From an uncultured Thermoproteaceae archaeon (lineage in GTDB: Archaea; Thermoproteota; Thermoprotei; Thermoproteales; Thermocladiaceae): a stretch of 64,000 nt of DNA. Shown here piece after piece: positions 1-21,235 of this stretch (positions are counted from its first letter, which is position 1; every line of letters starts with the position of its first letter). The DNA is taken from positions 256,001-320,000 of the forward strand of contig CAZNTG010000006.1 of NCBI GenBank assembly GCA_964575955.1, read 5' to 3'. The position numbers were made by a program, and so were the translations under genes. Under the pieces are notes generated by a model that had not been told where the DNA came from, did not search any database, and saw only the letters and a list, made by a program, of their open reading frames with translations.

Positions 1-480
1 TATAAATGCTAATGCTCCAGCACCAAGACCAAGCCAATACTTCATACTTTCAGGAACATGGAAGTACATACCTACAGCATATGCAATATTATTACCGTGG
101 AATAGTAGTGTAGACCATATACAATAGTGGAATAGTATTAGACCAAACCAAAAACCTACAGATCTATATCCATAATTCTCCTTCAGTAATGTGTAGAATG
201 TGAACATTCTAACAAGTATCCAACCAAGAGCTTTCCAATAACTATGAACATTTGGATATAGTGTTAATCTGTATAGACCCCAGTAAAGTCCATTAGGACC
301 TTTAGGTGTTGCAGCCCATCTAGCAAGTCTATATATTATACCAACTATAAGTACCGCAGTTGCAAAATATGCAAATGCTACATATAGTGCACATATGAAT
401 ACTGCAGCTCCAAGAGGAACTTTAACACTCTCAACTATTTTCCAAGCAAGCTTCCAGTATATGCTGTATGTACTATCCAT
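1..480 (-). CDS. dsrM: DsrM / NarI-family membrane b-type cytochrome (5' part; runs off the window's left edge)
   Basis: Manual minus-strand translation from ATG at 480: MDSTYSIYWKLAWKIVESVKVPLGAAVFICALYVAFAYFATAVLIVGIIYRLARW...FWFGLILFHYCIWSTLLFHG... Hydrophobic helices and a two-His LFH...LFHG helix; directly downstream of dsrC. Not in the ORF track because it is truncated. Confidence 0.75.
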   Translation of the reverse strand, partial: MDSTYSIYWKLAWKIVESVKVPLGAAVFICALYVAFAYFATAVLIVGIIYRLARWAATPKGPNGLYWGLYRLTLYPNVHSYWKALGWILVRMFTFYTLLKENYGYRSVGFWFGLILFHYCIWSTLLFHGNNIAYAVGMYFHVPESMKYWLGLGAGALAFI

Positions 481-650
481 ACTCTCAAACTGATAGAAAC
501 TACTAGAATAATAAGTGTTAACTCTAGAAAAACATGAATAGAGAGTTGTAAGATTGAATGTTTTAAAAGTAATTTAGTTTAGAAAAGTAGTGTTTAACCT
601 AGTTTATAGATTAGAATGTCAAGTTGAGAAGAATGTTTTAAACAGGTTGA

Positions 651-1055
651 TTAGACACATCCAGTTGGCTTTGGTGCTCCAGCTACCTTACATGCACCTT
701 TTGCTGGTCCGTTTGGAAATAGTTCGTGAATTCTCTTTAGGTCTGTCTTAGTTTCTCTAACTAACATTCTTATTGGTGGACAAACTCCATATGTTACATA
801 GTACTCATGTAGATACTTAACAATCTTCCAATGCTCATCGGTCATTCTCTCTCCATACTTCTCAAACATTGTGAATAGGAACTCTGCAACAAACTCATCC
901 CATGCCTCTGGGTTCTGCAGGAATCTGTCTTCGTCAAGTATTATCTCCTTACCTGTTTTCTTAAGTCTAAGCTTTACCCATCCTGGTGGCAAGCTTGGGT
1001 CTTGTATAACCTCATATTCAAATTCTGGTGATGGAGGTTTTGGCAATTCTGCCAT
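651..1055 (-). CDS. dsrC: DsrC sulfur-relay protein
   Basis: HWKIVKYL...CPPIRMLV...LFPNGPAKGACKVAGAPKPTGCV; has both C-terminal Cys (C-X10-C) of true DsrC. Confidence 0.95.
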   Translation of the reverse strand: MAELPKPPSPEFEYEVIQDPSLPPGWVKLRLKKTGKEIILDEDRFLQNPEAWDEFVAEFLFTMFEKYGERMTDEHWKIVKYLHEYYVTYGVCPPIRMLVRETKTDLKRIHELFPNGPAKGACKVAGAPKPTGCV

Positions 1056-1072
1056 ACCTAATCTCCGTAATC

Positions 1073-1094
1073 AATAGATACATGAGTATCTATT
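1073..1094. promoter_or_regulatory. Palindromic operator candidate in the dsrC promoter
   Basis: AATAGATAC-ATGA-GTATCTATT: 9-bp perfect inverted repeat abutting a minus-strand TATA-like element upstream of dsrC. Confidence 0.5.
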
Positions 1095-1243
1095 AAGCTT
1101 TACCCTCTGTAACTTTATGAATAATTAATGAAGACTGTATGAAATTTTCAAATCTTGATGATATTTAAGTTTTCAAAGATTTGAGAATTATTAAAGTCTG
1201 TGAGAGATTTTTAAAATATTTATCGGAAAGTGTTGTTAAGGAG

Positions 1244-2644
1244 TTATGCAAGTCCTAAAGCTTTCTTTAGAGCTTCAACATATTTCCACTTCTGATCTCT
1301 TGGTATCATTGCGAATGGTATAGCATCTTTGTAGTATGGCTCTGGTGGTGGTTCTTTTCTAATTACTAGGTCAGGTGCTGGATGTTCTACAACTTCTTTA
1401 AGGAACTTCTCCCATGTGTTTCTAATTGATAAGTCTCCAACTCTCTCTCTAACGAATGCTGTATCTGCCCACTTTGCAACAATCTTCTTCTCGACAAGGT
1501 CTAGGAACCAGTTAATTACCTTCTTCTCATTCTCTGGTGTTACTCTTATGAATGGTATTAATACTGAGCCCATCTTTGGACCAACTCTACTCTTAATTGT
1601 TCCACCTATGAGTATTGTTACACCTCTAATTCTTCCAGGTAGTATTGCTGGGTTTGCTCTAATTATACAGTTCATACACTTTACACACTTTCTACCATCA
1701 CACTTCAATTCTAGTGATTGTTCATCCCATGTTAATGCTCCTGTTGGACATGATTCAACAATCTCTTTTGGATCTACCTCTCCTGTCTTAACCATCTTTC
1801 TAAACTCTTCCTGATCTATCTCAGGTGCTCCAAGCCATGTACCAATAACTATGTAGTCTGCACCTACTAAAGCCTTTATACAGTCTAGTGGACATCCCGA
1901 TAGTTTGAACTTTATCTTATATGGGAATTGTGGATATGTTTCCCAGTCTGGGAATCTCCTACCAATCTCACCCCACCATAGTATTGTATCATAACATGCG
2001 AATGGACAGGTTGCTGGTCCTGGACAGCATGTCCACATTCTAAGTACGTCTCCTGAACCTCCAACATCTGTTGGTGTTAGTAGTCTAATAGCCATTACTA
2101 GTCTCTCAACCTTTGCTTGGTCACTCATTATGATTGGCATTGCACCTGTACCACCTCTAAGCTGGAATATGCCCCATCCAAACTTGTCAGTTATCTCACA
2201 TATAGTTCTCATTAAGCTTGTAGACATTATACCTGCTGGTGGTGAGAGTACTCTAGCATGTACCTCATAGACCTTACCTGCATATAGTATACCCCACTCC
2301 TCATACTTCTTATACTCCTCAGGTGCTCCCTCTCTAATTATATGCTCAACAGTTGCGTGGAATACTCTACCTAGAAGTCCACAGTATACTCCAGGTACTG
2401 GAGATGCACCAGTATCCCATGGAGATCTACCAATAGCTACACCAATAGCCCATGCAAGTACTGGATAGAGAGACTTCTCAGCCTCCTTAACAAATGATGG
2501 CCATGGGCCCTTCTTCATCTCCTCAATAATCTGTCTAGCCTTCTCAACAGCCTTCTTAGGATCTTTCATCTCAGGCCATACCTCTTCAGGTGATGGTGCT
2601 GATCCTGTTGGATATCCAAACCTTGATTGAACCTTCCAAGACAT
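1244..2644 (-). CDS. dsrA: Dissimilatory sulfite reductase alpha subunit (archaeal type)
   Basis: KGPWPSFV, DVGGSG, siroheme motif CPGPATC (CX5C) and KFKLSGCPLDC (CX3C), ferredoxin CPTGAL...CVKCMNCI, RERVGD. Start moved to ATG 2644 based on TATA spacing. Confidence 0.93.
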   Translation of the reverse strand: MSWKVQSRFGYPTGSAPSPEEVWPEMKDPKKAVEKARQIIEEMKKGPWPSFVKEAEKSLYPVLAWAIGVAIGRSPWDTGASPVPGVYCGLLGRVFHATVEHIIREGAPEEYKKYEEWGILYAGKVYEVHARVLSPPAGIMSTSLMRTICEITDKFGWGIFQLRGGTGAMPIIMSDQAKVERLVMAIRLLTPTDVGGSGDVLRMWTCCPGPATCPFACYDTILWWGEIGRRFPDWETYPQFPYKIKFKLSGCPLDCIKALVGADYIVIGTWLGAPEIDQEEFRKMVKTGEVDPKEIVESCPTGALTWDEQSLELKCDGRKCVKCMNCIIRANPAILPGRIRGVTILIGGTIKSRVGPKMGSVLIPFIRVTPENEKKVINWFLDLVEKKIVAKWADTAFVRERVGDLSIRNTWEKFLKEVVEHPAPDLVIRKEPPPEPYYKDAIPFAMIPRDQKWKYVEALKKALGLA

Positions 2645-2668
2645 CTTAGTTATCAACTATTACCAATG

Positions 2669-2719
2669 CATTTATAAATAGCTATTCTACATCAGTTGTG
2701 AAATAGCTATTTATAAATG
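2669..2719. promoter_or_regulatory. Mirror-symmetric bidirectional promoter of dsrA/dsrB
   Basis: CATTTATAAATAGCTATT (2669-2686), 15-nt spacer, AATAGCTATTTATAAATG (2702-2719): perfect 18-bp inverted repeat. Each arm holds TTTATAAA, 26 and 23 nt from the ATGs at 2644 and 2741. Confidence 0.85.
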
Positions 2720-2740
2720 GATAACTTTAGGGTAAATTCA

Positions 2741-3991
2741 ATGACAACAACAGTGCAGTCAATACTTGACTGGCTTGCAACAGCACCACTAGACGAGCTT
2801 AGAAAACATCCACTACACCCTCAGAATAGACCAGAAAAACTTTGGAGATATTATCCACCACACTCATGGTTACCACCAATATGTTTGAGAAACTATGGTA
2901 AGTGGATTAAGAGAAGGATTATAGATCCAGGAATTATAGAAGTAACATCTAAGACAGGTGAAAAGCTATACCTTGTCAAGATTATCCTACCTGTAAGAGT
3001 TAGTACAAAGACAATGTACGAACTTCTAGATCTAGCAGATAAGTATGGTATTGGATGGATAGAAGCATCAAAGATGGGTAACCTAATAATAATGTGTGAT
3101 AGTGAGGAAAATGCAAGAGCATTAGCAAAAGAGTTGAGAGAGAAGGGATATCTAGTAGGTGGCTGGGGTAACAGACTCTGGAACATTAAGATATGTTCAA
3201 CATATATCACATGTACAACAGCAGTAATTGATGCTGTAACAGTAGAGAAAGCACTTGGAGATGTATTGATGGAATATACACAGAAAGAATTACCAGCAAA
3301 ACTCACAATTAAAGTATCAGCATGTCCAAATGCTTGTGGTGGAGGATTCGACGCTGCTGACATAGGAATTGTAGGATATCCAGCAAGTGTACCAATGATG
3401 GAAGGTTGGAGAATTAGAGTACTATGCCCACCAAGATCACTACTAGAAGCATGTCCAGTAGGAGACATAAAGATGCTTAAAGATGAGAAAGGAAGACCAA
3501 TAGGAGCAGAGATAAGAGGACAGACATGTATGGCATGTGGAAGATGTCACGACTTCTGTGACGCAATAATATACGATCCAAATGAGATTGGAGTGATGGT
3601 AATGGTTGGTGGTAAATGCGCAAACACAGGAGTAGGACCAGGAATGTCTAGAGTACTAGTACCATTCGTACCAGCAGAACCACCAAGATGGCCAACACTA
3701 GTAGCAGTAATTAAGAGAGTAGTAGATGTATGGGTATCAAATGCAAAGAAGGGTGAAAGACTAAGAGACTTCATAACGAGGATAGGATGGGACAAGTTTG
3801 TAGAATTAACAGGACTACCAAAACCAGAAGACTACATAAAGCCACTAGATAAAGCACCAGGATGGACAAGATATGGATGGCAACCACTATACCTCAGAAG
3901 AACAGATGAAAACAAGAGATACATTGGAACTAGAATTGATAATGATATGATGGCTATAAGTGCAGCACTATTCGAAGACATAATTAAGTAA
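2741..3991 (+). CDS. dsrB: Dissimilatory sulfite reductase beta subunit (archaeal type)
   Basis: LPPICLRNYGKW, ICSTYITC (CX5C), SACPNAC (CX3C), CMACGRCHDFC, VMVGGK, PAEPPRWP, KGERLRDFITRIGW. Start ATG 2741 is 23 nt from TATA. Confidence 0.93.
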   Translation: MTTTVQSILDWLATAPLDELRKHPLHPQNRPEKLWRYYPPHSWLPPICLRNYGKWIKRRIIDPGIIEVTSKTGEKLYLVKIILPVRVSTKTMYELLDLADKYGIGWIEASKMGNLIIMCDSEENARALAKELREKGYLVGGWGNRLWNIKICSTYITCTTAVIDAVTVEKALGDVLMEYTQKELPAKLTIKVSACPNACGGGFDAADIGIVGYPASVPMMEGWRIRVLCPPRSLLEACPVGDIKMLKDEKGRPIGAEIRGQTCMACGRCHDFCDAIIYDPNEIGVMVMVGGKCANTGVGPGMSRVLVPFVPAEPPRWPTLVAVIKRVVDVWVSNAKKGERLRDFITRIGWDKFVELTGLPKPEDYIKPLDKAPGWTRYGWQPLYLRRTDENKRYIGTRIDNDMMAISAALFEDIIK

Positions 3992-4004
3992 GATCTAGAT
4001 ATAA

Positions 4005-4763
4005 CTATAATTCACAAATCTCAATATTTCTATCTCTAAACTTCTTAATTCTATACTTAATCTCTTCAATAGTATTTGTACAGAGATCCATAACATCAAT
4101 CTCATCCTTACCATTATACAGAAGTATCACAGCTTTAGACTTACTACCAGCAATAATTGAAAGCATTCTCAATGTAAATATTACAAAGAAATCATTAAAA
4201 GACTTTATGATAAGTCTCTCACAGTTTTTAACAATTTCAGGATCAACACCTAAAATTTTTGATATAAGTTCTACAAGTGATCTACTGTGTACAGTGTCTG
4301 CAAGTAGGTAGTACATCAGTGGTGTAAATATGTACTTTGCGGTATTTCTAAACTCATCAATATTATCAAGTTGTGATATCGTTATTCCAATTCTTTTTAA
4401 ACTCCTCGCAAACACTATCAGGTATGAGCATAATTCTTCGAATTTAGAATCTACTCTCCATATAAGCTTAATCTTATTTATAAGATATGGTGAATCTTCA
4501 ACATTTTGAGCAATACATTGAAGAAGTCCTTTAACGGTAATTCTGTGAGTATGTAGTGAATCTGACTTTAGAAAACCTAGATCGAGAAGTTTCTTAGCTT
4601 TCTTATAGGTAGTGCTAACTGCAAATCCTGCAAGCATAGAAGCTTTATATAGAGAAATACTACCATAGTAAGAATATACTCGCAAGATTGATAATTCTAT
4701 ATCATCAAGATGTCTATCAATAACTTCTGAAAGTCTTGTTACTAGCTCTTGTAGAATATCCAT
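4005..4763 (-). CDS. Hypothetical protein with N-terminal winged-HTH (putative regulator)
   Basis: ISLYKASMLAGFAVSTTYKKAKKLLDLGFL...ITVKG wHTH pattern. Confidence 0.6.
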   Translation of the reverse strand: MDILQELVTRLSEVIDRHLDDIELSILRVYSYYGSISLYKASMLAGFAVSTTYKKAKKLLDLGFLKSDSLHTHRITVKGLLQCIAQNVEDSPYLINKIKLIWRVDSKFEELCSYLIVFARSLKRIGITISQLDNIDEFRNTAKYIFTPLMYYLLADTVHSRSLVELISKILGVDPEIVKNCERLIIKSFNDFFVIFTLRMLSIIAGSKSKAVILLYNGKDEIDVMDLCTNTIEEIKYRIKKFRDRNIEICEL

Positions 4764-4788
4764 ACAATTATATACTTTATTAAGAGAC

Positions 4789-6198
4789 TTAATTTGATGA
4801 CCCTAGCAACTTGACATTAACAATATAATTAACTATGTGATAAATATGATTGTAAGAGCTAGGATGTATATGAGTATACTGTGCATATGTGTTATATTTT
4901 AGAAGTCCATCTCTACCATCACCAATACCCCTACCTCTATACAACTTTAAACAAATTTTAACATCTCTATCCTTTAGATATATCTTACTATGATGAAATT
5001 CGTGACCTCTAAATATCTTACCAGGAGAGCCTATTGGAATTCTATCAACAATTTCGGCAAGAACATAACCATGACCAACAGGTCTATTAAGCATGTATGT
5101 ACATGCTTCAAATATCTTACACATATCATAACAATCACCACCATACACAATGCAGTCTGTTAAAAACATTAGACCACCACATTCAGCATATATAAAACCA
5201 CCTTTCTCATAAAATTTATACACACTTTTCAAAAATGGTTTATTAGAACTTATATACTCAGCCCAAACTTCAGGAAAACCACCACCTATAACTAGAAGGT
5301 CTACGTCTGTAGGTATTGATGTATTTTCCATAGAGTCTAAAATATACATCTTATTTGAATAGTTTATACAAAGTTCGATAACTTCAGGATAGTAAAATGT
5401 GAATGATTTATCAATTATAATACCAATATTTATCTTCCTTAAAACATTTTCAAAAATCTCAAATTCTCCAATACATCTTAATGTCTCTGCTTCTCTAGCT
5501 ATCTTAACTATCTTATCAATATCTATGAAATCTATAACTTTTTTCAAACTATCATATATTAGATCTCTAGTACCACTTTCAAGTGTTGGTACTAGTCCTA
5601 GATGTCTATACTTGAATAATTCTTCTAACTTACTACTCTTAGGTATGTATCCCAGTATTTCAATATCTTTGAAACTTTTCTCAATTATCTTCTCAATTTT
5701 TCTATATTGAGATTCTTTTACGATATTTGTAATTACTACACCTCTAATATTCATCTTTCCATAATCTTTAAAACCTTTAACTATTGCTGCTATTGATTTA
5801 TTTATTCTTTCTGAGTCTATTACAAGTATTATTGGTGTTTTTAATATTCTTGCTATAATTTCTGTTTCTCCAATCTGTGTTTCTATGTCAGGACTATCAT
5901 ATATTCCAAATACACCTTCTATTAATGCTATATCACTATCTTTTGAATATGTTATAAATCTATTAATAATTTTTTGTGGATTTTGAAGATATGGATCTAA
6001 ATTTCTACACGGTCTTGATGTTATTGTTGAGTGGTATGTTGGATCTATGAAATCTGGACCAATTTTAAATGTCTGTACTTTCAATCCGTACTTCGATATT
6101 AATGCTAGTGCTATTGTTAATGTTGTAATTGTCTTACCTGTCTTACCTCTAGGTGCTGTGATTAGTAGTCTAGGAATGTCTACATCAAGTAGTTTCAT
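4789..6198 (-). CDS. dsrN: Cobyrinate a,c-diamide synthase family; probably DsrN siroheme amidase
   Basis: GKT P-loop, FKIGPDFIDP, EGVFG, RHLGL, GGGFPE, AECGGLM, GHEFH, YTHIH. Adjacent to dsrAB; could instead be cbiA. Confidence 0.75.
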   Translation of the reverse strand: MKLLDVDIPRLLITAPRGKTGKTITTLTIALALISKYGLKVQTFKIGPDFIDPTYHSTITSRPCRNLDPYLQNPQKIINRFITYSKDSDIALIEGVFGIYDSPDIETQIGETEIIARILKTPIILVIDSERINKSIAAIVKGFKDYGKMNIRGVVITNIVKESQYRKIEKIIEKSFKDIEILGYIPKSSKLEELFKYRHLGLVPTLESGTRDLIYDSLKKVIDFIDIDKIVKIAREAETLRCIGEFEIFENVLRKINIGIIIDKSFTFYYPEVIELCINYSNKMYILDSMENTSIPTDVDLLVIGGGFPEVWAEYISSNKPFLKSVYKFYEKGGFIYAECGGLMFLTDCIVYGGDCYDMCKIFEACTYMLNRPVGHGYVLAEIVDRIPIGSPGKIFRGHEFHHSKIYLKDRDVKICLKLYRGRGIGDGRDGLLKYNTYAQYTHIHPSSYNHIYHIVNYIVNVKLLGSSN

Positions 6199-6254
6199 AT
6201 ATTGTTAATGTTTGGAGAAGTTTAAATAGGAGTATTGTCTTGACGGTTAGAAAG

Positions 6255-6833
6255 ATGAGTGAGGTTATTCATTGGCCTGGTAGAAATCCACCACAGGTAG
6301 ATGAGGTAGTTGTTGATGCATCAGGATGTGTAGCTGGTAGATTAGCATCTGTCGTAGCTAAGCTAGCTTTAGAAGGTAGGAGAGTTGTCGTTGTTAATGC
6401 TGAGAAGGCTATAATTACAGGAGATTTCAACATGATATTAAACTGGTATAAGAAGAAGATTACTGAATGGAGAACTCACTACAATCCTGAGAAGGTTGGT
6501 CCTAAGATTCCTAGAAGACCTGATAGAATACTTAAGAGAATTATTCGTGGTATGCTTCCTAGGAAGTATTGGAGAGGTAGGAAAGCATTGAAGAGAATTA
6601 GAGTATATATGGGTATTCCACCAGACTACATCAATAAGCCTAGGATAGTGTTTGAAGAGACTGTCTATAGACCAAGACCTGGTGCTAAGTATGTAACACT
6701 TGAAGAAATTTGGAAACATTTAGAACCTCATAAGTGGGAGATGTGGAAGAAGGCTCAAGAAGTTTGGGAGAGATGGTTAAAGTATAAGTTAGAGAAGCAG
6801 AAAGCTAGTAAGGTAGAGTCACAATCTCGGTAA
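6255..6833 (+). CDS. rpl13: 50S ribosomal protein L13
   Basis: VVDASGCVAGRLAS, NAEKAIITG, PRRPDRILKRIIRGMLP. Confidence 0.97.
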   Translation: MSEVIHWPGRNPPQVDEVVVDASGCVAGRLASVVAKLALEGRRVVVVNAEKAIITGDFNMILNWYKKKITEWRTHYNPEKVGPKIPRRPDRILKRIIRGMLPRKYWRGRKALKRIRVYMGIPPDYINKPRIVFEETVYRPRPGAKYVTLEEIWKHLEPHKWEMWKKAQEVWERWLKYKLEKQKASKVESQSR

Positions 6834-6871
6834 AAGCTTTTAAAATTCTTCAAAAATAGTAACAGACCATA

Positions 6872-7348
6872 ATGTCTACTGAACAGGAAGTTGTTAAGAA
6901 ACTTCCAAGAGAGATTCCTGGAGTTGAAGTTAGAGTTGAGAAGGAGTATAAGGTAGTTATTTCTGTAGGTAAGAAGAAGACTGCAATAGCTAGAGCAATA
7001 ATAAGACCTGGAATTGGACGTGTAAAGATTAATGGTGTACCTGTAGAGATTTGGCCTATAGAGATGGCTAGATTGAAAATGATGGAACCACTAATACTTG
7101 CAGGTAGGAATTTAGTATCTAAAGTTGATATTGATGTAAATGTTAGAGGTGGAGGTGTGATGGGACAAGCATCTGCTGTTAGAATGGCCATAGCTAGAGG
7201 TCTTGTAGCATATTTTGAAAGCCCTGAACTTCTAGAACTATACATGAAGTATGACCCATCAATGATTAAGGGTGATCCAAGAAGAACAGAACCTAAGAAG
7301 CCAGGTATTAAACATGCAAGATCTAAAAGACAGAAGGCATATAGATAA
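6872..7348 (+). CDS. rps9: 30S ribosomal protein S9
   Basis: GKKKTAIARA, GGGVMGQA, DPRRTEPKKPG...ARSKRQKAYR. Confidence 0.98.
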   Translation: MSTEQEVVKKLPREIPGVEVRVEKEYKVVISVGKKKTAIARAIIRPGIGRVKINGVPVEIWPIEMARLKMMEPLILAGRNLVSKVDIDVNVRGGGVMGQASAVRMAIARGLVAYFESPELLELYMKYDPSMIKGDPRRTEPKKPGIKHARSKRQKAYR

Positions 7349-7395
7349 AAGAGACAACATTTATAACCACAATAACATAGTGGTAGTGACTCGAT

Positions 7396-7983
7396 ATGGG
7401 TGATCCTAAGAAGCCTAGAAAGAAGTGGATTGAAGGTAAACCAATGAAACTATGGAATAAGCAGCTACTAATGGAGGAACTTCAACTAGTAGGTGAGTAT
7501 GGTCTTAGAAATAAGAGAGAACTATGGTTAGCAATGACAATATTGAAGAAGATTAAGAGACGTGCAAGAAACATGCTAGCAATGCCACCTGAAGAGAGAG
7601 CTAAAGTTGAAGGTGAGTTTAAGATGAAACTATACAAGATGGGATATATACCAGATCCAGACGTACCACTAGACTACATACTAGGACTAGATGTACGTGC
7701 AATACTAGAGAGAAGACTACAAACGTTAGTATATAGGAAAGGACTTGCAAGAAGTATACATGAGGCAAGACAACTAATAGTACATAGACACATAGCAGTA
7801 GATGGCAGAGTAGTAAACGCACCAGGATTTTTAGTACCTAGAGATTTAGAAGATAAGATAAGCTATGCACCAACAAGCCCATACTATTGGAGATTTATAA
7901 AAGGAGAACCAGTATTCGGACCAGGACAACCAGCACCAATACAGGTACAATTAGGAATTTTAAAAACAGAACTAACAACCTAA
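7396..7983 (+). CDS. rps4: 30S ribosomal protein S4
   Basis: MGDPKKPRKKW, YGLRNKRELW, LERRLQT, ARQLIVHRHI. Confidence 0.98.
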   Translation: MGDPKKPRKKWIEGKPMKLWNKQLLMEELQLVGEYGLRNKRELWLAMTILKKIKRRARNMLAMPPEERAKVEGEFKMKLYKMGYIPDPDVPLDYILGLDVRAILERRLQTLVYRKGLARSIHEARQLIVHRHIAVDGRVVNAPGFLVPRDLEDKISYAPTSPYYWRFIKGEPVFGPGQPAPIQVQLGILKTELTT

Positions 7984-9705
7984 CTAACCACCAACAACCT
8001 TTCTAAACAACAGCACAGCATCACCAATATCAAGCCTACCATTATGATTTAAATCACATGGAACATTACTACGGTATAGACCAACAAGAATCTCTAACAA
8101 CAACTTAACATCGTTAAGATCAAGCTTACTATTATGATCAAAATCGCACTCCAGGACAGTAACCTTATGGAACTGTATATGTACAAGATATGTTGAATGT
8201 ATAGCATGGATATCTCTACCAATAACGACAAGCTTCAAACTTCCACTACCGACATATATATGAGACATGTTTTCTAACCTCACAAAACTACCATTGATAT
8301 AGGCGTAAAGTAGAACATCATTCTTAGAAGGAGTACATTCTTCATAACTGTAATCTGCATAGCCAACTTTTTCATATTTAAAACATCTCAAAACACTATA
8401 CTTAACAACGTACATACCCGCACCATCTAGATTAACAGTGTAGTAATTAGCAGCTCTAGAAGAAATATTTACATAGAAGTCTGAACCTTCAACATTAAAC
8501 GAAGGCTTGTATCTTCTTATAGGTTTAAATCCATTAGCCATATCTACATAGGCAGAATATAGTGCAGAAAGTACAGACCTCTCATAGAACGGTGTAGCAT
8601 TAGTATACAACATATACATGGTTTCAGAATTAAGTCCATAGATATCAAATATATACCACACCAACGGTGCATACAGATACGAATAGTCGTACACTTCTGA
8701 GGAACAATAATCATAACATTCTGAAGGATATCTCCCACTGTTTATACACGCCTTATAGCAATTAACAAACTTCGCATATATAAACCAGGCTGGATCTGTA
8801 ACATACATATGATAATACTCCAGATAATCCTGAGACCACCCTTGTAATCCTGGAAATATTGTATGATTCCATACGAAGTATGGTGCAGCAACAGCTCCAC
8901 CTTCAATTAGCCATAAATTATTTAATCCATAATACTGATAATCTAGATACTTATTACTCTTTACATAATAGTCCTGAGCCACATGAAATAGCTCGTGCGT
9001 TATAGTCTCCTTGAGTTGATCCAGTGGATTGTAGCTTATCTGTGTTGTGTTTATTCCTATGCGGTCTATACACACTTTAGTAATCCTTTCAGTAGTTGGG
9101 TAATAATAATATACGTAGTATGTTATCCCGAGTGTTGAACCTCCTAAGTAATGTATCACTATTACGTACTTGTTTCCTATGCATGGTGGTGCTAGTTTTA
9201 TTCCATGTGAGGTGTACCATCTATATGCGTAGTATGCATATTTTGCTAAGTCTTGTATTGTATATCCTTTTGGTTCTTCAATTGCTGCTACTATGAATGG
9301 TCCAATCTGGTATATGTCTGTTTCAACGTTTTTAACAGCAACAATCTCTAGTACAAGTTTGTTACTTGAGTAAGATTCTGCGGATACTACAAGTCTGTAT
9401 AGGCTAGGTCTAGGTATCGATAAGTTTATTAATATTGTCTTCTCCTCATAAGGGCTTAATGTAATCTGTAATGTTTCACTCTGTGCTATTATACTTCTTA
9501 AGACATCTTTCAATACTATGTCTAGTGTTGTTGTTATGTATGTGTCTTCTGTGTTTTGTATTGTTATTGGTATCTGTACATTTCCAATATTCTCGATATA
9601 TATTGTCTTTTCTGATTTTAATACTATGTATGCACTTGCTGTTAATGTTATGGTTAGTGTAAGTATTATGGATATTATCAATATGTAGTGTATAATGTTC
9701 TTCAT
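7984..9705 (-). CDS. Secreted putative zinc metallopeptidase with C-terminal dockerin-like domain
   Basis: Signal peptide MKNIIHYILIISIILTLTITLTASA; Ig-like N-region; TITHELFHVAQ (HEXXH) and WLIEGGA; duplicated Ca-loop CDFDHNSKLDLNDV / CDLNHNGRLDIGDA. Confidence 0.75.
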   Translation of the reverse strand: MKNIIHYILIISIILTLTITLTASAYIVLKSEKTIYIENIGNVQIPITIQNTEDTYITTTLDIVLKDVLRSIIAQSETLQITLSPYEEKTILINLSIPRPSLYRLVVSAESYSSNKLVLEIVAVKNVETDIYQIGPFIVAAIEEPKGYTIQDLAKYAYYAYRWYTSHGIKLAPPCIGNKYVIVIHYLGGSTLGITYYVYYYYPTTERITKVCIDRIGINTTQISYNPLDQLKETITHELFHVAQDYYVKSNKYLDYQYYGLNNLWLIEGGAVAAPYFVWNHTIFPGLQGWSQDYLEYYHMYVTDPAWFIYAKFVNCYKACINSGRYPSECYDYCSSEVYDYSYLYAPLVWYIFDIYGLNSETMYMLYTNATPFYERSVLSALYSAYVDMANGFKPIRRYKPSFNVEGSDFYVNISSRAANYYTVNLDGAGMYVVKYSVLRCFKYEKVGYADYSYEECTPSKNDVLLYAYINGSFVRLENMSHIYVGSGSLKLVVIGRDIHAIHSTYLVHIQFHKVTVLECDFDHNSKLDLNDVKLLLEILVGLYRSNVPCDLNHNGRLDIGDAVLLFRKVVGG

Positions 9706-11100: not shown

Positions 11101-12954
11101 CTATTTAACATCGATGTCGCTTAACAGTCTCTCTATTTCATTATCTCTACTCTTCAGTTCTTCAAATCTTGCCATTAATATTCTTAGTAGTTGTCCTTGT
11201 AAGTCTTTCAATGTTGCTATTACGTCTTTATCAATCAATCCTAGCTTGAGTAAGATGTATAACAGTTCAATTTTACCTTTCGTGACCTCTACTAATGCTG
11301 ATTTTGTACGTCTTCTTGCACCTAGTCCATGATTTCTAAGTATTTTAACGACCTCATCAGCGATCTTTGCAAGCTTAATGTCTCTGTTACTATATTGGTT
11401 ATTCTTGGAAAATTTTAGGTACACTATAAGTCTCCTCTCGCCTCTACTTTTCCAAATTCCAATCTTTCCCCTAATTGAAACTCCAAGACTTTTTGTAAAT
11501 GCAATTACTTCCTTTATTGCATCGATTACCATCCTTGGATCTACAATCGATTTTTCAATCATATGTGTCGTAATCCTTTCATTAAGTATGCCGATTCTAC
11601 CACGTCTTACAGAATGCTGCATGAGAATGCTTAACGCATATCGAGTCTTGGGAGATAACCACATTGTGACGACAAGTTTCTCATTTTGGAAGCCATTTAT
11701 CTTTATCAGTTTCTTAGCTTCAAGATATTTCAAAAGAAGCAGTGATGCAAATCCCTTCACAGTATATGGTGCAAGTGCTATACCTACACCATAATCATCT
11801 TCTCCTCTCTTTATAACTACACCATCTCCATCGAACTCTCCTGCTAATGCCTTAATTTCATCATTTAAGTAAGTGCTTATCAAGTCCTTAGACTGTTCAG
11901 CCAAGGCATCTATTTCCTCAAAATTGATCTCCCCCTTTATGTACATTGCTCTGAGTGTAGCATTTATATCCTTAACTTTGCCTCCCTGTATTTCAACTCC
12001 GCGAGATTTCAGATAGCTAGCTAGTATACTCTTAGCCAAGCCTAATATCTGCCTAATTCTTCTAATTATGTAGTCTATTTCTGGTATTTCTTGTTTAAAT
12101 AATTCTTGTGCTATGTAGTTGCTGCATGTTGCTACTATGTGTAATTTTCCTGTTTTGTTGTCTTTTCCTGTTATTTTCAGTTTTATGAATCCTAATGCTT
12201 TTGTGATTGTTGTTGGTAGTTCGTGTCTTGTTGTTCCATATTCTAGAATGTCTACGTTGTTTTCTACTATTATGCTTGTTATTCCGTCACATATTGTTAA
12301 CCATGTTATATAGTCGATATTTTCCCGAATTCTTCTCCTAATCTCATCAATTGTTATGGGTAGCTTAATGTAGAGATTTCCAAATTCTTCTTTTAATTCT
12401 TCAATTACTTTCTTCTCATTTTCATATTTCTGTAATAGTTTTTTAAATTTTTCATTTACATACTCTATAAACTTTTTGTAGAATTTTTCTAATTCTTGTT
12501 CAGGTATTTCACAAATTATATAACCCTGCTCTATCTTCCTCAATTCTTTCTCAATACTTTCTCTCACCTTAACAGGTGCTTTATCTGGTATTAACTCTCT
12601 CAAAATACCGAGTTTATATAAAATTACTGCAAGCTCCTCCTTACCTCTTCTAACAGTTATGAAAGTATCTCTACTTCGTACATAAGCTCCATAACCCAAC
12701 CTTCTCAATTCTTCACACACTTCTCTAGCTATTTGAGTAGATGTAACCTTAGGAGATTTAAAATAGATCCTAAGTTCATAATTAACACTCCTACCACCTC
12801 TAACTTTCTGACAAGCCCATCTAGCAAATACAGTAGCACCATACCTACTCACAATATCAGAAAAGATTCTCAAAACATTAACTACACACTCATTATTAAA
12901 TACCTCTCTACAAAAAATCTCAACACTCTCTACCTCATGTAGAGAGTCTCTCAT
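11101..12954 (-). CDS. Free-standing LAGLIDADG-like homing endonuclease-related protein
   Basis: Two LAGLIDADG-like helices (YITWLTICDG; ALAGEFDGDG) plus similar N- and C-terminal modules. No intein N/C termini and not inside an intron. Confidence 0.65.
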   Translation of the reverse strand: MRDSLHEVESVEIFCREVFNNECVVNVLRIFSDIVSRYGATVFARWACQKVRGGRSVNYELRIYFKSPKVTSTQIAREVCEELRRLGYGAYVRSRDTFITVRRGKEELAVILYKLGILRELIPDKAPVKVRESIEKELRKIEQGYIICEIPEQELEKFYKKFIEYVNEKFKKLLQKYENEKKVIEELKEEFGNLYIKLPITIDEIRRRIRENIDYITWLTICDGITSIIVENNVDILEYGTTRHELPTTITKALGFIKLKITGKDNKTGKLHIVATCSNYIAQELFKQEIPEIDYIIRRIRQILGLAKSILASYLKSRGVEIQGGKVKDINATLRAMYIKGEINFEEIDALAEQSKDLISTYLNDEIKALAGEFDGDGVVIKRGEDDYGVGIALAPYTVKGFASLLLLKYLEAKKLIKINGFQNEKLVVTMWLSPKTRYALSILMQHSVRRGRIGILNERITTHMIEKSIVDPRMVIDAIKEVIAFTKSLGVSIRGKIGIWKSRGERRLIVYLKFSKNNQYSNRDIKLAKIADEVVKILRNHGLGARRRTKSALVEVTKGKIELLYILLKLGLIDKDVIATLKDLQGQLLRILMARFEELKSRDNEIERLLSDIDVK

Positions 12955-20516: not shown

Positions 20517-21235
20517 GTATGAACTACATAATAACAGACGAGCCAAAGAGATTAGAATATTTAATATCTAGAAAACTTGGATTTGAAATTATAAAGTTAG
20601 AAAATGCTGTACTAGATATTGAAGAATTGAAGAATCGTATAGAAAACTCCACAATACTATTAAGAATATATTCACCATACAAACTAATACCAATATCAAT
20701 AATATGTGAAAAATATGCTAAAAAAGTTATAAATAGTAGTAAACTCATAATAACATCACTAATAAGAGAATTACTATATAGAGAATTAGAGAAAAATAAT
20801 ATTCAAACACCTAGAAGATTGTACATATTTGATCTATGTAATGTATCTGACATAGCTAATAAGATTGGTAAAACTAATATGTTATTAACATTTACTAAAA
20901 CAGATATTGAAGGTGTTGTAGAAACAGCACAAGCACTTGTATCACTTATAGAACATAGATACTATATGAGTGCTGAAGATGTGAAAGTAAATTTAGTAAT
21001 TCCAAATATTGAAGATATTAAAAATATACTAGTAGTAGGAAAGGAACCTTCAATAGATATAGACATGGTTAGAAAAGTTGTAGATATACTTGGAGAAGGA
21101 ATATATACTATAACGGTAGGTAAACAGGATGGTAGAGAAGTAGTACTATATATAGATCCAGTACCAAGTATAGAAAATGATGAAGATATTGAAAAAGTTT
21201 TAGAATATTTGAAAAATATTCTAAAACTTAACTAA
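20513..21235 (+). CDS. Divergent RimK/LysX-like ATP-grasp protein
   Basis: VINS...I...L...NNIQTP and LIEHRYYM resemble LysX segments; the usual KP..GSWG motif is absent; overlaps the lysJ stop. Confidence 0.45.
   Translation: MSMNYIITDEPKRLEYLISRKLGFEIIKLENAVLDIEELKNRIENSTILLRIYSPYKLIPISIICEKYAKKVINSSKLIITSLIRELLYRELEKNNIQTPRRLYIFDLCNVSDIANKIGKTNMLLTFTKTDIEGVVETAQALVSLIEHRYYMSAEDVKVNLVIPNIEDIKNILVVGKEPSIDIDMVRKVVDILGEGIYTITVGKQDGREVVLYIDPVPSIENDEDIEKVLEYLKNILKLN

Follow-up and report, generated by a model that had tools for sequence, protein, structure and literature searches.

A head-to-head dsrA/dsrB gene pair with a palindromic intergenic region in a clade of Thermoproteales

The genes dsrA and dsrB, encoding the alpha and beta subunits of DsrAB-type sulfite reductase, are used as a marker pair for dissimilatory sulfur metabolism, and the location of dsrA before dsrB in one operon is described as the rule in the field (Mueller et al. 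2015, PMC4351914). Divergent transcription from a short region is known in Pyrococcus (P.) furiosus, where bidirectional promoters are of the type BRE-TATA-BRE (BRE, transcription factor B (TFB) recognition element), i.e., one TATA box is shared by the two directions and the transcription start sites (TSSs) are ~49-50 bp apart (Gruenberger et al. 2019, PMC6640164). Here, we analyze a 64,000-nt stretch of DNA, referred to as the window, from an uncultured Thermoproteaceae archaeon (assembly GCA_964575955.1, contig CAZNTG010000006.1, positions 256,001 to 320,000), in which a dsrA-like and a dsrB-like gene are located head to head on opposite strands. A whole deep-branching archaeal clade breaks the operon rule in this manner, and this clade-wide variant of dsr organization, with its putative palindromic bidirectional promoter centered on a conserved element called the "dsr box" below, is apparently undescribed.

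In terms of its components the locus resembles canonical dsrAB, i.e., it encodes paralogous alpha and beta proteins with the siroheme/[4Fe-4S] Cys motifs and the ferredoxin insert, and it also harbors dsrC, dsrMK and dsrN. It differs from the canonical locus in that dsrA and dsrB are found on opposite strands, have separate predicted promoters and in that dsrA is joined to dsrC, dsrM and dsrK. In the tandem relatives, the dsrA stop codon mostly overlaps the dsrB start by 4 nt (e.g., in locus L006, where A spans 1474-2712 and B spans 341-1477), which suggests translational coupling; this link is lost in the window locus. The nearest promoter type that has been described is the archaeal BRE-TATA-BRE bidirectional promoter. 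The window region would share with the P. furiosus promoters the divergent transcription from a short AT-rich region that makes use of the symmetry of the TATA box and the TATA-binding protein. It differs in having two TATA boxes, spaced by 39 bp, that enclose a conserved dyad; its TSSs are expected at a distance of ~92 nt from each other, and the products are functional partner genes rather than antisense noise.

The dsrA-like gene is found at 1244..2644 on the minus strand (466 aa from the ATG at 2644, with an alternative TTG at 2656) and the dsrB-like gene at 2741..3991 on the plus strand (416 aa); an alternative ATG of the latter, at 2717, falls within a TATA box. Although the open reading frames (ORFs) span 1244..2656 and 2717..3991, respectively, the N-termini of related proteins (MSWK... 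in DsrA and M[TP]S.LDW in DsrB) favor the starts at 2644 and 2741, and the distance from ATG to ATG is therefore 96 nt. This intergenic region (2645..2740), which we read as a bidirectional promoter, contains an 18-nt perfect inverted repeat with a left arm at 2669..2686 and a right arm at 2702..2719. The symmetry extends further, to 26-nt arms (2666-2691 and 2697-2722) that are 88% complementary with 5 nt between them. Each arm harbors the sequence AATAGCTATT (2677-2686 and 2702-2711) and a TATA box, TTTATAAA, which for dsrA is located at 2671..2678 on the minus strand (hexamer start at -34 from the ATG; TSS expected at ~2647-2648) and for dsrB at 2710..2717 on the plus strand (hexamer start at -31; TSS expected at ~2740-2741). 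Genome-wide, TATA-like hexamers upstream of 1,022 long ORFs display a peak at starts -33..-28 from the ATG, i.e., the two boxes are found near the distance that is typical of this genome. A search of sequencing runs for the locus listed no RNA run that contains it. The original prediction, made from the DNA letters and the ORFs, had described the head-to-head genes, the 96-nt gap, the repeat, both motifs in each arm and TATA boxes at leaderless distance, and all of these elements were recovered, the repeat arms being exact reverse complements.

Perfect inverted repeats with arms of at least 14 nt and loops of at most 40 nt occur only four times in the 1.52-Mb genome and that at the dsr genes is the longest; none with arms of at least 18 nt were found in five second-order Markov simulations of the genome. 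The dsr inverted repeat is thus well beyond chance. Between the two TATA boxes lies a central dyad (2683..2705), TATTCTAC-N7-GTGAAATA, which differs by one mismatch from the pattern TATTNCAC-N7-GTGNAATA and which we consider a putative operator common to both promoters (the dsr box). The dyad is absent from the generic promoter consensus of the genome, where the BRE signal is weak and consists of a slight preference for A at -3 and -4. The dsr arms carry G and C at these positions, and the inner flank of each dsr TATA box holds the dyad in place of the generic BRE signal.

To place the arrangement in a wider context, gene orientation was surveyed in 31 genomes of the family, which comprise five genera (g1-g5), in an evenly sampled set of 401 genomes of the phylum, of which 34 had dsrA matches, and in 80 metagenome contigs retrieved using a DsrA profile. 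The head-to-head layout was found in 13 of 13 loci of g1-g4 with both genes on one contig, including that of a complete, single-contig genome, and dsrAB is tandem in g5. No head-to-head dsrA|dsrB pair was found outside g1-g4 in the phylum sample; all other sampled loci with both genes are tandem. Among the metagenome contigs, 66 are tandem, ten contain only dsrA and four are divergent. The DsrA proteins of these four are 89% (two) or 45% (two) identical to the window DsrA, which places them in the same clade. In other words, a deep DsrAB clade that spans four genera of one Thermoproteales family has this layout throughout. The original prediction named a layout that is common and already described in relatives as an outcome that would refute it; the layout is indeed the rule within the four-genus clade, but no publication that reports it was found. 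The literature search identified no description of divergent dsrA/dsrB, where published synteny plots (PMC10504309) and a Table S1 (PMC12948486) may show the orientation.

The DsrAB phylogeny called for by that prediction places the divergent pairs in one deep clade. In a paralogue-rooted tree of 95 sequences, with 12 divergent rows in each subtree, these rows form a single clade in both the DsrA and the DsrB subtrees (Shimodaira-Hasegawa-like approximate likelihood ratio test support of 86 and 99, respectively), each of which is sister to all tandem Thermoproteales sequences. A tree of concatenated DsrAB, based on 35 of 47 pairs, yielded a divergent clade with support values of 100/99, a sister group of 19 tandem Thermoproteales rows (100/100) and outgroups that are also tandem. 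Because the divergent DsrAB proteins form one clade, while the sister group and outgroups are tandem, the phylogeny indicates a single origin of the divergent layout, through inversion in a tandem ancestor. The layout is also old, given that the identity of DsrA and DsrB across the clade drops to 40-53%. The position of the divergent lineages near the base of reductive DsrAB implies that evolutionary scenarios are affected. A pair composed of a dsrA and a dsrB from two different, paralogous operons was also considered, but the A and B proteins of the divergent clade branch at corresponding points of their respective subtrees, and this possibility was therefore rejected.

Comparison of the 13 divergent genomes reveals which parts of the gap are maintained. 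In 12 of these, dsrA and dsrB are separated by 87-96 nt; in the remaining genome, G015, the distance is 73 nt from the ATG that was chosen and ~91 nt from the orthologous ATG. The center of symmetry coincides with the middle of the gap. TATA-like hexamers are found at -25..-34 on the dsrA side in all 13 genomes and on the dsrB side in ten (none scored in G015, G017 and G022). The arms themselves are much more variable, with an identity between the two arms of a genome, over 27 nt, that ranges from 11/27 to 27/27, i.e., 27/27 in G005, 23/27 in the window, 19-22/27 in two sister species, 16-21/27 in g4, 16/27 in g3 and 11-15/27 in g2. In G005, perfect arms of 29 nt are separated by 1 nt, which yields a 59-bp palindrome. 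Within the genus of the window organism, arms from a single genome resemble each other more than do orthologous arms of different species (16-20/27), except for the close pair G003/G006, where orthologous arms share 27/27 and 23/27; with the same exception, the TATA boxes co-vary within genomes. Such co-variation may point to concerted evolution, or to symmetry being under selection.

The part that is kept in all gaps is the inner dyad, in which CAC and GTG are found one helical turn apart. Exact half-sites, TGTG[AGT]AATA, occur 17 times at fixed positions in the 13 gaps, as compared to 0.05 per kb per strand genome-wide. Consequently, the original emphasis on identical arms as the key feature does not hold up: the arms range from 11/27 to 27/27, the conserved part is the central dyad, and this dyad is also found at dsr promoters that drive transcription in one direction. 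The latter observation is the reason why we favor a shared operator over self-sufficient twin promoters.

The distribution of the dyad beyond the gap was determined using the pattern TATTNCAC-N6-7-GTGNAATA with at most one mismatch in dsr loci and in the own genome, or with exact matches in 41 whole genomes. In 305.6 kb of dsr loci from relatives the pattern occurs 21 times, of which 11 are dsrA|dsrB gaps. Other occurrences are located upstream of dsrM (G013 and G016), upstream of dsrC (G016) and, in the sister family, ~30 nt upstream of tandem dsrA (G025, G029, G033, G040 and G267). In G016, the gap between dsrM and ORF177 is also 92 nt with a central dyad, and a DsrE-like gene located between dsrM and dsrA bears a half-site and a TATA box. 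The own 1.52-Mb genome harbors five dyads, four of which are found within long ORFs, so that the dsr gap is the sole intergenic one. The exact scan of the 41 genomes, which is independent of the choice of loci, yielded 14 sites as compared to none for a reversed-pattern control. Seven of these are located in dsrA|dsrB gaps, one precedes a cobA-like methylase gene and a dsrN-like amidase gene, one precedes a DsrE-like gene that is followed by FlpD and HdrA/QmoA-like genes, one precedes a gene of unknown function that is followed by a TauE-family gene, and one adjoins a DsrK-like gene at a contig end. Such a distribution is the pattern expected for the operator of a pathway-specific regulator. 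Because the dyad is found at one-directional dsr promoters and in tandem lineages, these comparisons place its origin before the inversion.

Archaeal regulators with a winged helix-turn-helix (wHTH) domain bind dyad operators such as the TrmB-family site, TATCAC-N5-GTGATA, and the Lrp-type sites. The CAC...GTG dyad of the window resembles such sites in that it is flanked by TAT/ATA and located beside the BRE/TATA elements, and it differs from the TrmB-family site in its N7 spacing and in the half-site.

Taken together, these data are best explained by a model, which we consider probable although far from certain, in which the gap is a compact bidirectional promoter with a shared dyad operator that couples expression of dsrB to that of dsrA-dsrC-dsrM-dsrK, and where a wHTH protein encoded beside dsrB, ORF252, is the candidate regulator. 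The two outward-facing TATA boxes, 39 bp apart from center to center, are each located ~23-26 nt from a start codon. With transcription predicted to begin ~23 nt past each box, this short distance would leave the two mRNAs with a minimal leader or none at all. Located between the boxes is a single dyad, TATT-N-CAC-N7-GTG-N-AATA, with CAC and GTG separated by one helical turn, which would serve as the operator of a dimeric regulator bound just upstream of both TATA boxes. One bound dimer could then act on both pre-initiation complexes, and its position would be more typical of activation. As a consequence, dsrB, on its own, and dsrA-dsrC-dsrM-dsrK(-cobA) would respond jointly to the same switch. 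The layout itself is the result of a single inversion of a tandem dsrAB ancestor in which the dyad was already present. A more far-reaching version of this model, which we offer tentatively and regard as doubtful, involves a previously undescribed "dsr box" regulon of the Thermoproteales, in which a symmetric dimer of an ORF252-family protein, encoded within dsr clusters across the order, would bind the dyad and simultaneously activate mirror-image leaderless promoters. Concerted evolution would keep the arms of each genome alike, so that alpha and beta of the obligate alpha2beta2 enzyme would be made in matched amounts from separate transcripts. Balancing of the subunits at the promoter level is possible; it would be favored by the co-varying arms, but the conservation may also be explained without it.

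A simpler explanation, i.e., that of the original prediction, is that two self-sufficient, identical mirror promoters without any dedicated regulator yield equal amounts of dsrA and dsrB mRNA and thereby substitute for an operon. The arms are perfectly identical along 18 nt in the window and along 29 nt in G005 (the 59-bp palindrome), which fits this scenario, as does the higher identity of arms within a genome (23/27 in the window, 27/27 in G005) than between orthologs (16-20/27), with TATA boxes that change together. We nevertheless consider it unlikely because the arm identity is only 11-16/27 in g2 and g3, while the inner dyad is conserved and recurs at one-directional dsr promoters. Furthermore, equal promoters alone would not give equimolar subunits, since dsrA probably heads an operon while dsrB is alone; with dsrM and dsrK close behind dsrA (19-26 nt in g2 and g4) the two transcripts would not be equivalent, and the subunit balance is also set by translation and mRNA decay. 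The dyad also borders the BRE zone, and its conservation could reflect a special BRE, i.e., an extended element specific to one promoter class and recognized by a particular TFB paralogue, where the palindrome would simply follow from two such promoters placed back to back. In agreement with this idea, the half-site always stops 4-5 nt short of the TATA box, also at one-directional promoters, and thus overlaps the expected BRE. A back-to-back origin would not explain why one-directional dsr promoters of relatives retain both dyad halves (e.g., upstream of tandem dsrA in L046 and in L047, and upstream of dsrC in L034), and no such element is found at the generic promoters of the genome, which makes this explanation improbable.

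A palindrome may also lack any regulatory role and instead be a by-product of the inversion, e.g., of an inverted promoter duplication, the arms being kept alike by gene conversion or hairpin-templated repair. The tandem outgroups and the single change of layout are compatible with such a history, the arms are homogenized in some genomes, and a long hairpin (-18 kcal/mol, z -6.55) is predicted for the gap when single-stranded. Yet, the dyad predates the inversion, given its occurrence in tandem lineages and at further dsr promoters, and its core has been kept at a DsrA/DsrB identity of 40-53% while the flanks have changed; we consider this possibility a little less probable still than a special BRE. 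Finally, palindromes may mislead assemblers and an inversion could have been introduced at the repeat during assembly, a concern that was raised together with the original prediction. Two contigs from the same genus, L030 (G001; positions 1-120) and L031 (G002; last 120 nt), do stop 11 nt into a head-to-head dsrA, just beyond the gap; the dyad of both carries the CTAC variant of the left half-site seen in the window. However, a 16,543-nt Logan contig covers 2000-3400 with no differences (the run from which it was obtained may be the source of the window DNA, and the contig therefore counts as another assembly, not as independent evidence), and the same arrangement is found in 12 other genomes, one of which is complete in a single contig, and in four metagenome contigs. 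In addition, the arms are only 15 nt apart and an inversion between them would leave the gene order unchanged. The layout is thus real, and we give practically no credence to an artefact.

The favored model includes a regulator, for which ORF252 (4005..4763, minus strand), a lineage-specific protein encoded 25 nt downstream of the dsrN-like gene, is the candidate. Seven relatives were found in a collection of 5.8 billion proteins. ORF252 alone gave no Pfam match at E values up to 10, but a profile built from 12 sequences of the family matches the wHTH domain of PH1519, an Lrp/AsnC regulator (E 5.4e-6), and individual members match HTH_24 (5 of 12; best E 2.7e-6) and TrmB (4 of 12). From these matches, the family is predicted to carry a wHTH domain. 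The C-terminal two-thirds of the protein had no known match in profile and structure searches. An AlphaFold model obtained without an alignment was unusable (predicted local distance difference test score, pLDDT, of 38), while that based on the 12 sequences reached 82.7. When the model was used in a Foldseek search against the PDB, no match was found at E of at most 0.001; the top matches are mostly wHTH regulators, all of them weak with E of at least 0.013, and an ESM Atlas search yielded only leads scoring below 0.9. Twenty-eight genomes have both dsrAB and a family match, and in 21 of these a member is encoded no more than 5 kb from dsrAB. Its gene directly follows dsrB or dsrN in g1 and g3, is located beside dsrC in g2, directly follows dsrK in the g5 genome G016, is 4-5 kb away from dsrA in the remaining g5 genomes and is found 0.3-2.4 kb from dsrAB in the sister family. 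In the tandem genus g5 (G010, G013, G019 and others), there are 2-5 ORF252-type paralogues per genome, several of which are clustered within ~12 kb of dsrAB.

In bacterial dsr clusters, a small winged-helix protein, DsrD, is reported to be an allosteric activator of DsrAB (PMC8794893). ORF252 is likewise a predicted winged-helix protein genetically tied to dsrAB; it differs from DsrD in being three times longer. No similarity in sequence was detected between the two, in that DsrD was not among the Pfam matches of the 12 ORF252-family members at E values up to 1. By analogy with this precedent, ORF252 might bind to the enzyme rather than to DNA.

Several observations weigh against the model outlined above. 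With respect to the regulator, the assignment of ORF252 as the protein that acts at the dsr box is based on guilt by association rather than proof, and ORF252 is accordingly referred to as a candidate: in g4 the homologue is found on a different contig from dsrAB, three dsr-positive genomes (G027, G030 and G031) are without a match to the family, and five genomes with a match lack dsrAB, where weak matches may be other wHTH proteins. With respect to the operator, the left half-site of the window is degenerate (TGTAGAATA), as is seen from comparison with the pattern, and the dsrA-side half-site of g2 is TGAGGAATA. Not all exact dyads are associated with sulfur genes; that in G007 precedes a YaaH-family transporter gene, which is not a sulfur gene, and those in G036 and G037 are orthologous and located in a TatD-type neighborhood in genomes without dsrAB. 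A scan of the own genome with a crude pattern of half-site and TATA box revealed no convincing target besides dsrA and dsrB.

The identity of the genes was examined at the protein level. The genome (15 contigs, 94.7% complete) contains a single dsrA-like and a single dsrB-like gene. The proteins match the NCBIfam models dsrA (E 1.9e-85, 287.1 bits) and dsrB (E 9.4e-100, 333.9 bits), but because both scores are below the equivalog cut-offs (392.85 and 341.5, respectively) we classify them as divergent rather than typical family members; the entire divergent clade is below the dsrA cut-off. The nearest solved structures are those of Archaeoglobus DsrA (3mm5_A, 2.9e-56) and DsrB (3mm5_B, 1.4e-65). 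The Cys motifs of DsrA, i.e., C-PGPAT-C (CX5C), C-PLD-C (CX3C), CPTGA and CVKCMNC of the ferredoxin insert, align with those of 3mm5_A, and the DsrB motifs C-PNA-C, CPVG and CMACGRC align with those of 3mm5_B. Judged from these alignments and the trees, the proteins clearly belong to DsrAB-type sulfite reductase as alpha and beta paralogues, each in its own subtree. With conserved starts, the proteins of the divergent clade are longer (426-473 aa for DsrA and 395-425 aa for DsrB) than their tandem counterparts (~410 and ~380 aa).

On the minus strand, dsrA is followed by dsrC (651..1055), which encodes a 134-aa protein with the C-terminus ...CKVAGAPKPTGCV, where two Cys are spaced by 10 residues (105.8 bits as compared to a cut-off of 53.5), and by the 3' part of a dsrM-like gene (1..480), the rest of which is found outside the window. 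This gene encodes a NarI-type membrane protein with only a weak match to the DsrM model. Further along the same strand, the own genome continues, beyond the window, with the remainder of dsrM, a DsrK-like gene (350.5 bits, below the cut-off of 400) and a uroporphyrinogen methyltransferase-like gene. The gaps from dsrA to dsrC and on to dsrM and dsrK are 188, 170 and 10 nt, respectively, and the dsrA-dsrM spacing is 19-26 nt in g2 and g4. From this organization, dsrA probably heads an operon dsrA-dsrC-dsrM-dsrK(-cobA). Because the gene that follows dsrB is convergent and located 13 nt downstream, dsrB is probably monocistronic. The dsrN-like gene (4789..6198, minus strand) encodes a CobB-type a,c-diamide synthase of the siroheme amidase type.

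The arrangement has a number of practical implications. It bears on synteny-based annotation and on tools in which dsrA and dsrB are assumed to be neighbors with the same orientation, and the locus is a natural case for the study of subunit balance in an obligate heteromer without an operon. Furthermore, the dyad together with a candidate regulator offers a testable handle on the control of sulfite respiration in Crenarchaeota; a literature search that covered running text found no dsr regulator in Thermoproteales and no regulation of sulfite respiration in Crenarchaeota. The original prediction also held that such organisms escape amplicon surveys that assume tandem dsrAB. The logic is right, since a forward primer in dsrA and a reverse primer in dsrB could not amplify from divergent genes, but the point is moot because the common primers are stated not to bind archaeal-type dsrAB anyway (Mueller et al. 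2015, PMC4351914). Two classical dsrAB primers had no match in the window at up to three mismatches.

A number of additional observations were made at these loci. Between the dsrA stop and the dsrC start of the window, a perfect inverted repeat (9-nt arms, 4-nt loop) is found at 1073-1094 (AATAGATAC ATGA GTATCTATT), and GGAG is located ~9 nt ahead of the dsrC ATG. The repeat could be a processing or attenuation signal within the dsrA-dsrC unit; an Rfam scan of positions 1-8000 gave no match at E values up to 1. In some genomes of the sister family, two paralogous tandem dsrAB operons are themselves arranged head to head, B<-A | A'->B' (G038:C1:382785-387561 and G222:C6:50638-55392). At tandem dsrAB loci of other families, L051 (G391; 2060-2075) and L052 (G113; ~2150-2175), the two genes are in frame with one TGA (+0-4 codons) between them, and open frames of 752-791 aa are found at loci of this type; these in-frame dsrA-TGA-dsrB loci could be read-through or fusion forms. 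The 47%-complete genome G018 contains an exact dsr box at 11982-12003 and, downstream of it, a dsrB-like stretch (C35:12433-13279) interrupted by in-frame TGA and TAA codons, which reflects either a pseudogene or an error of the assembly. Elsewhere in the window, the second-longest perfect inverted repeat of the genome, with 16-nt arms (AAGTTTTAGAATATTT) and a 3-nt loop, is found at 21195-21229, and may be a terminator or another protein site.

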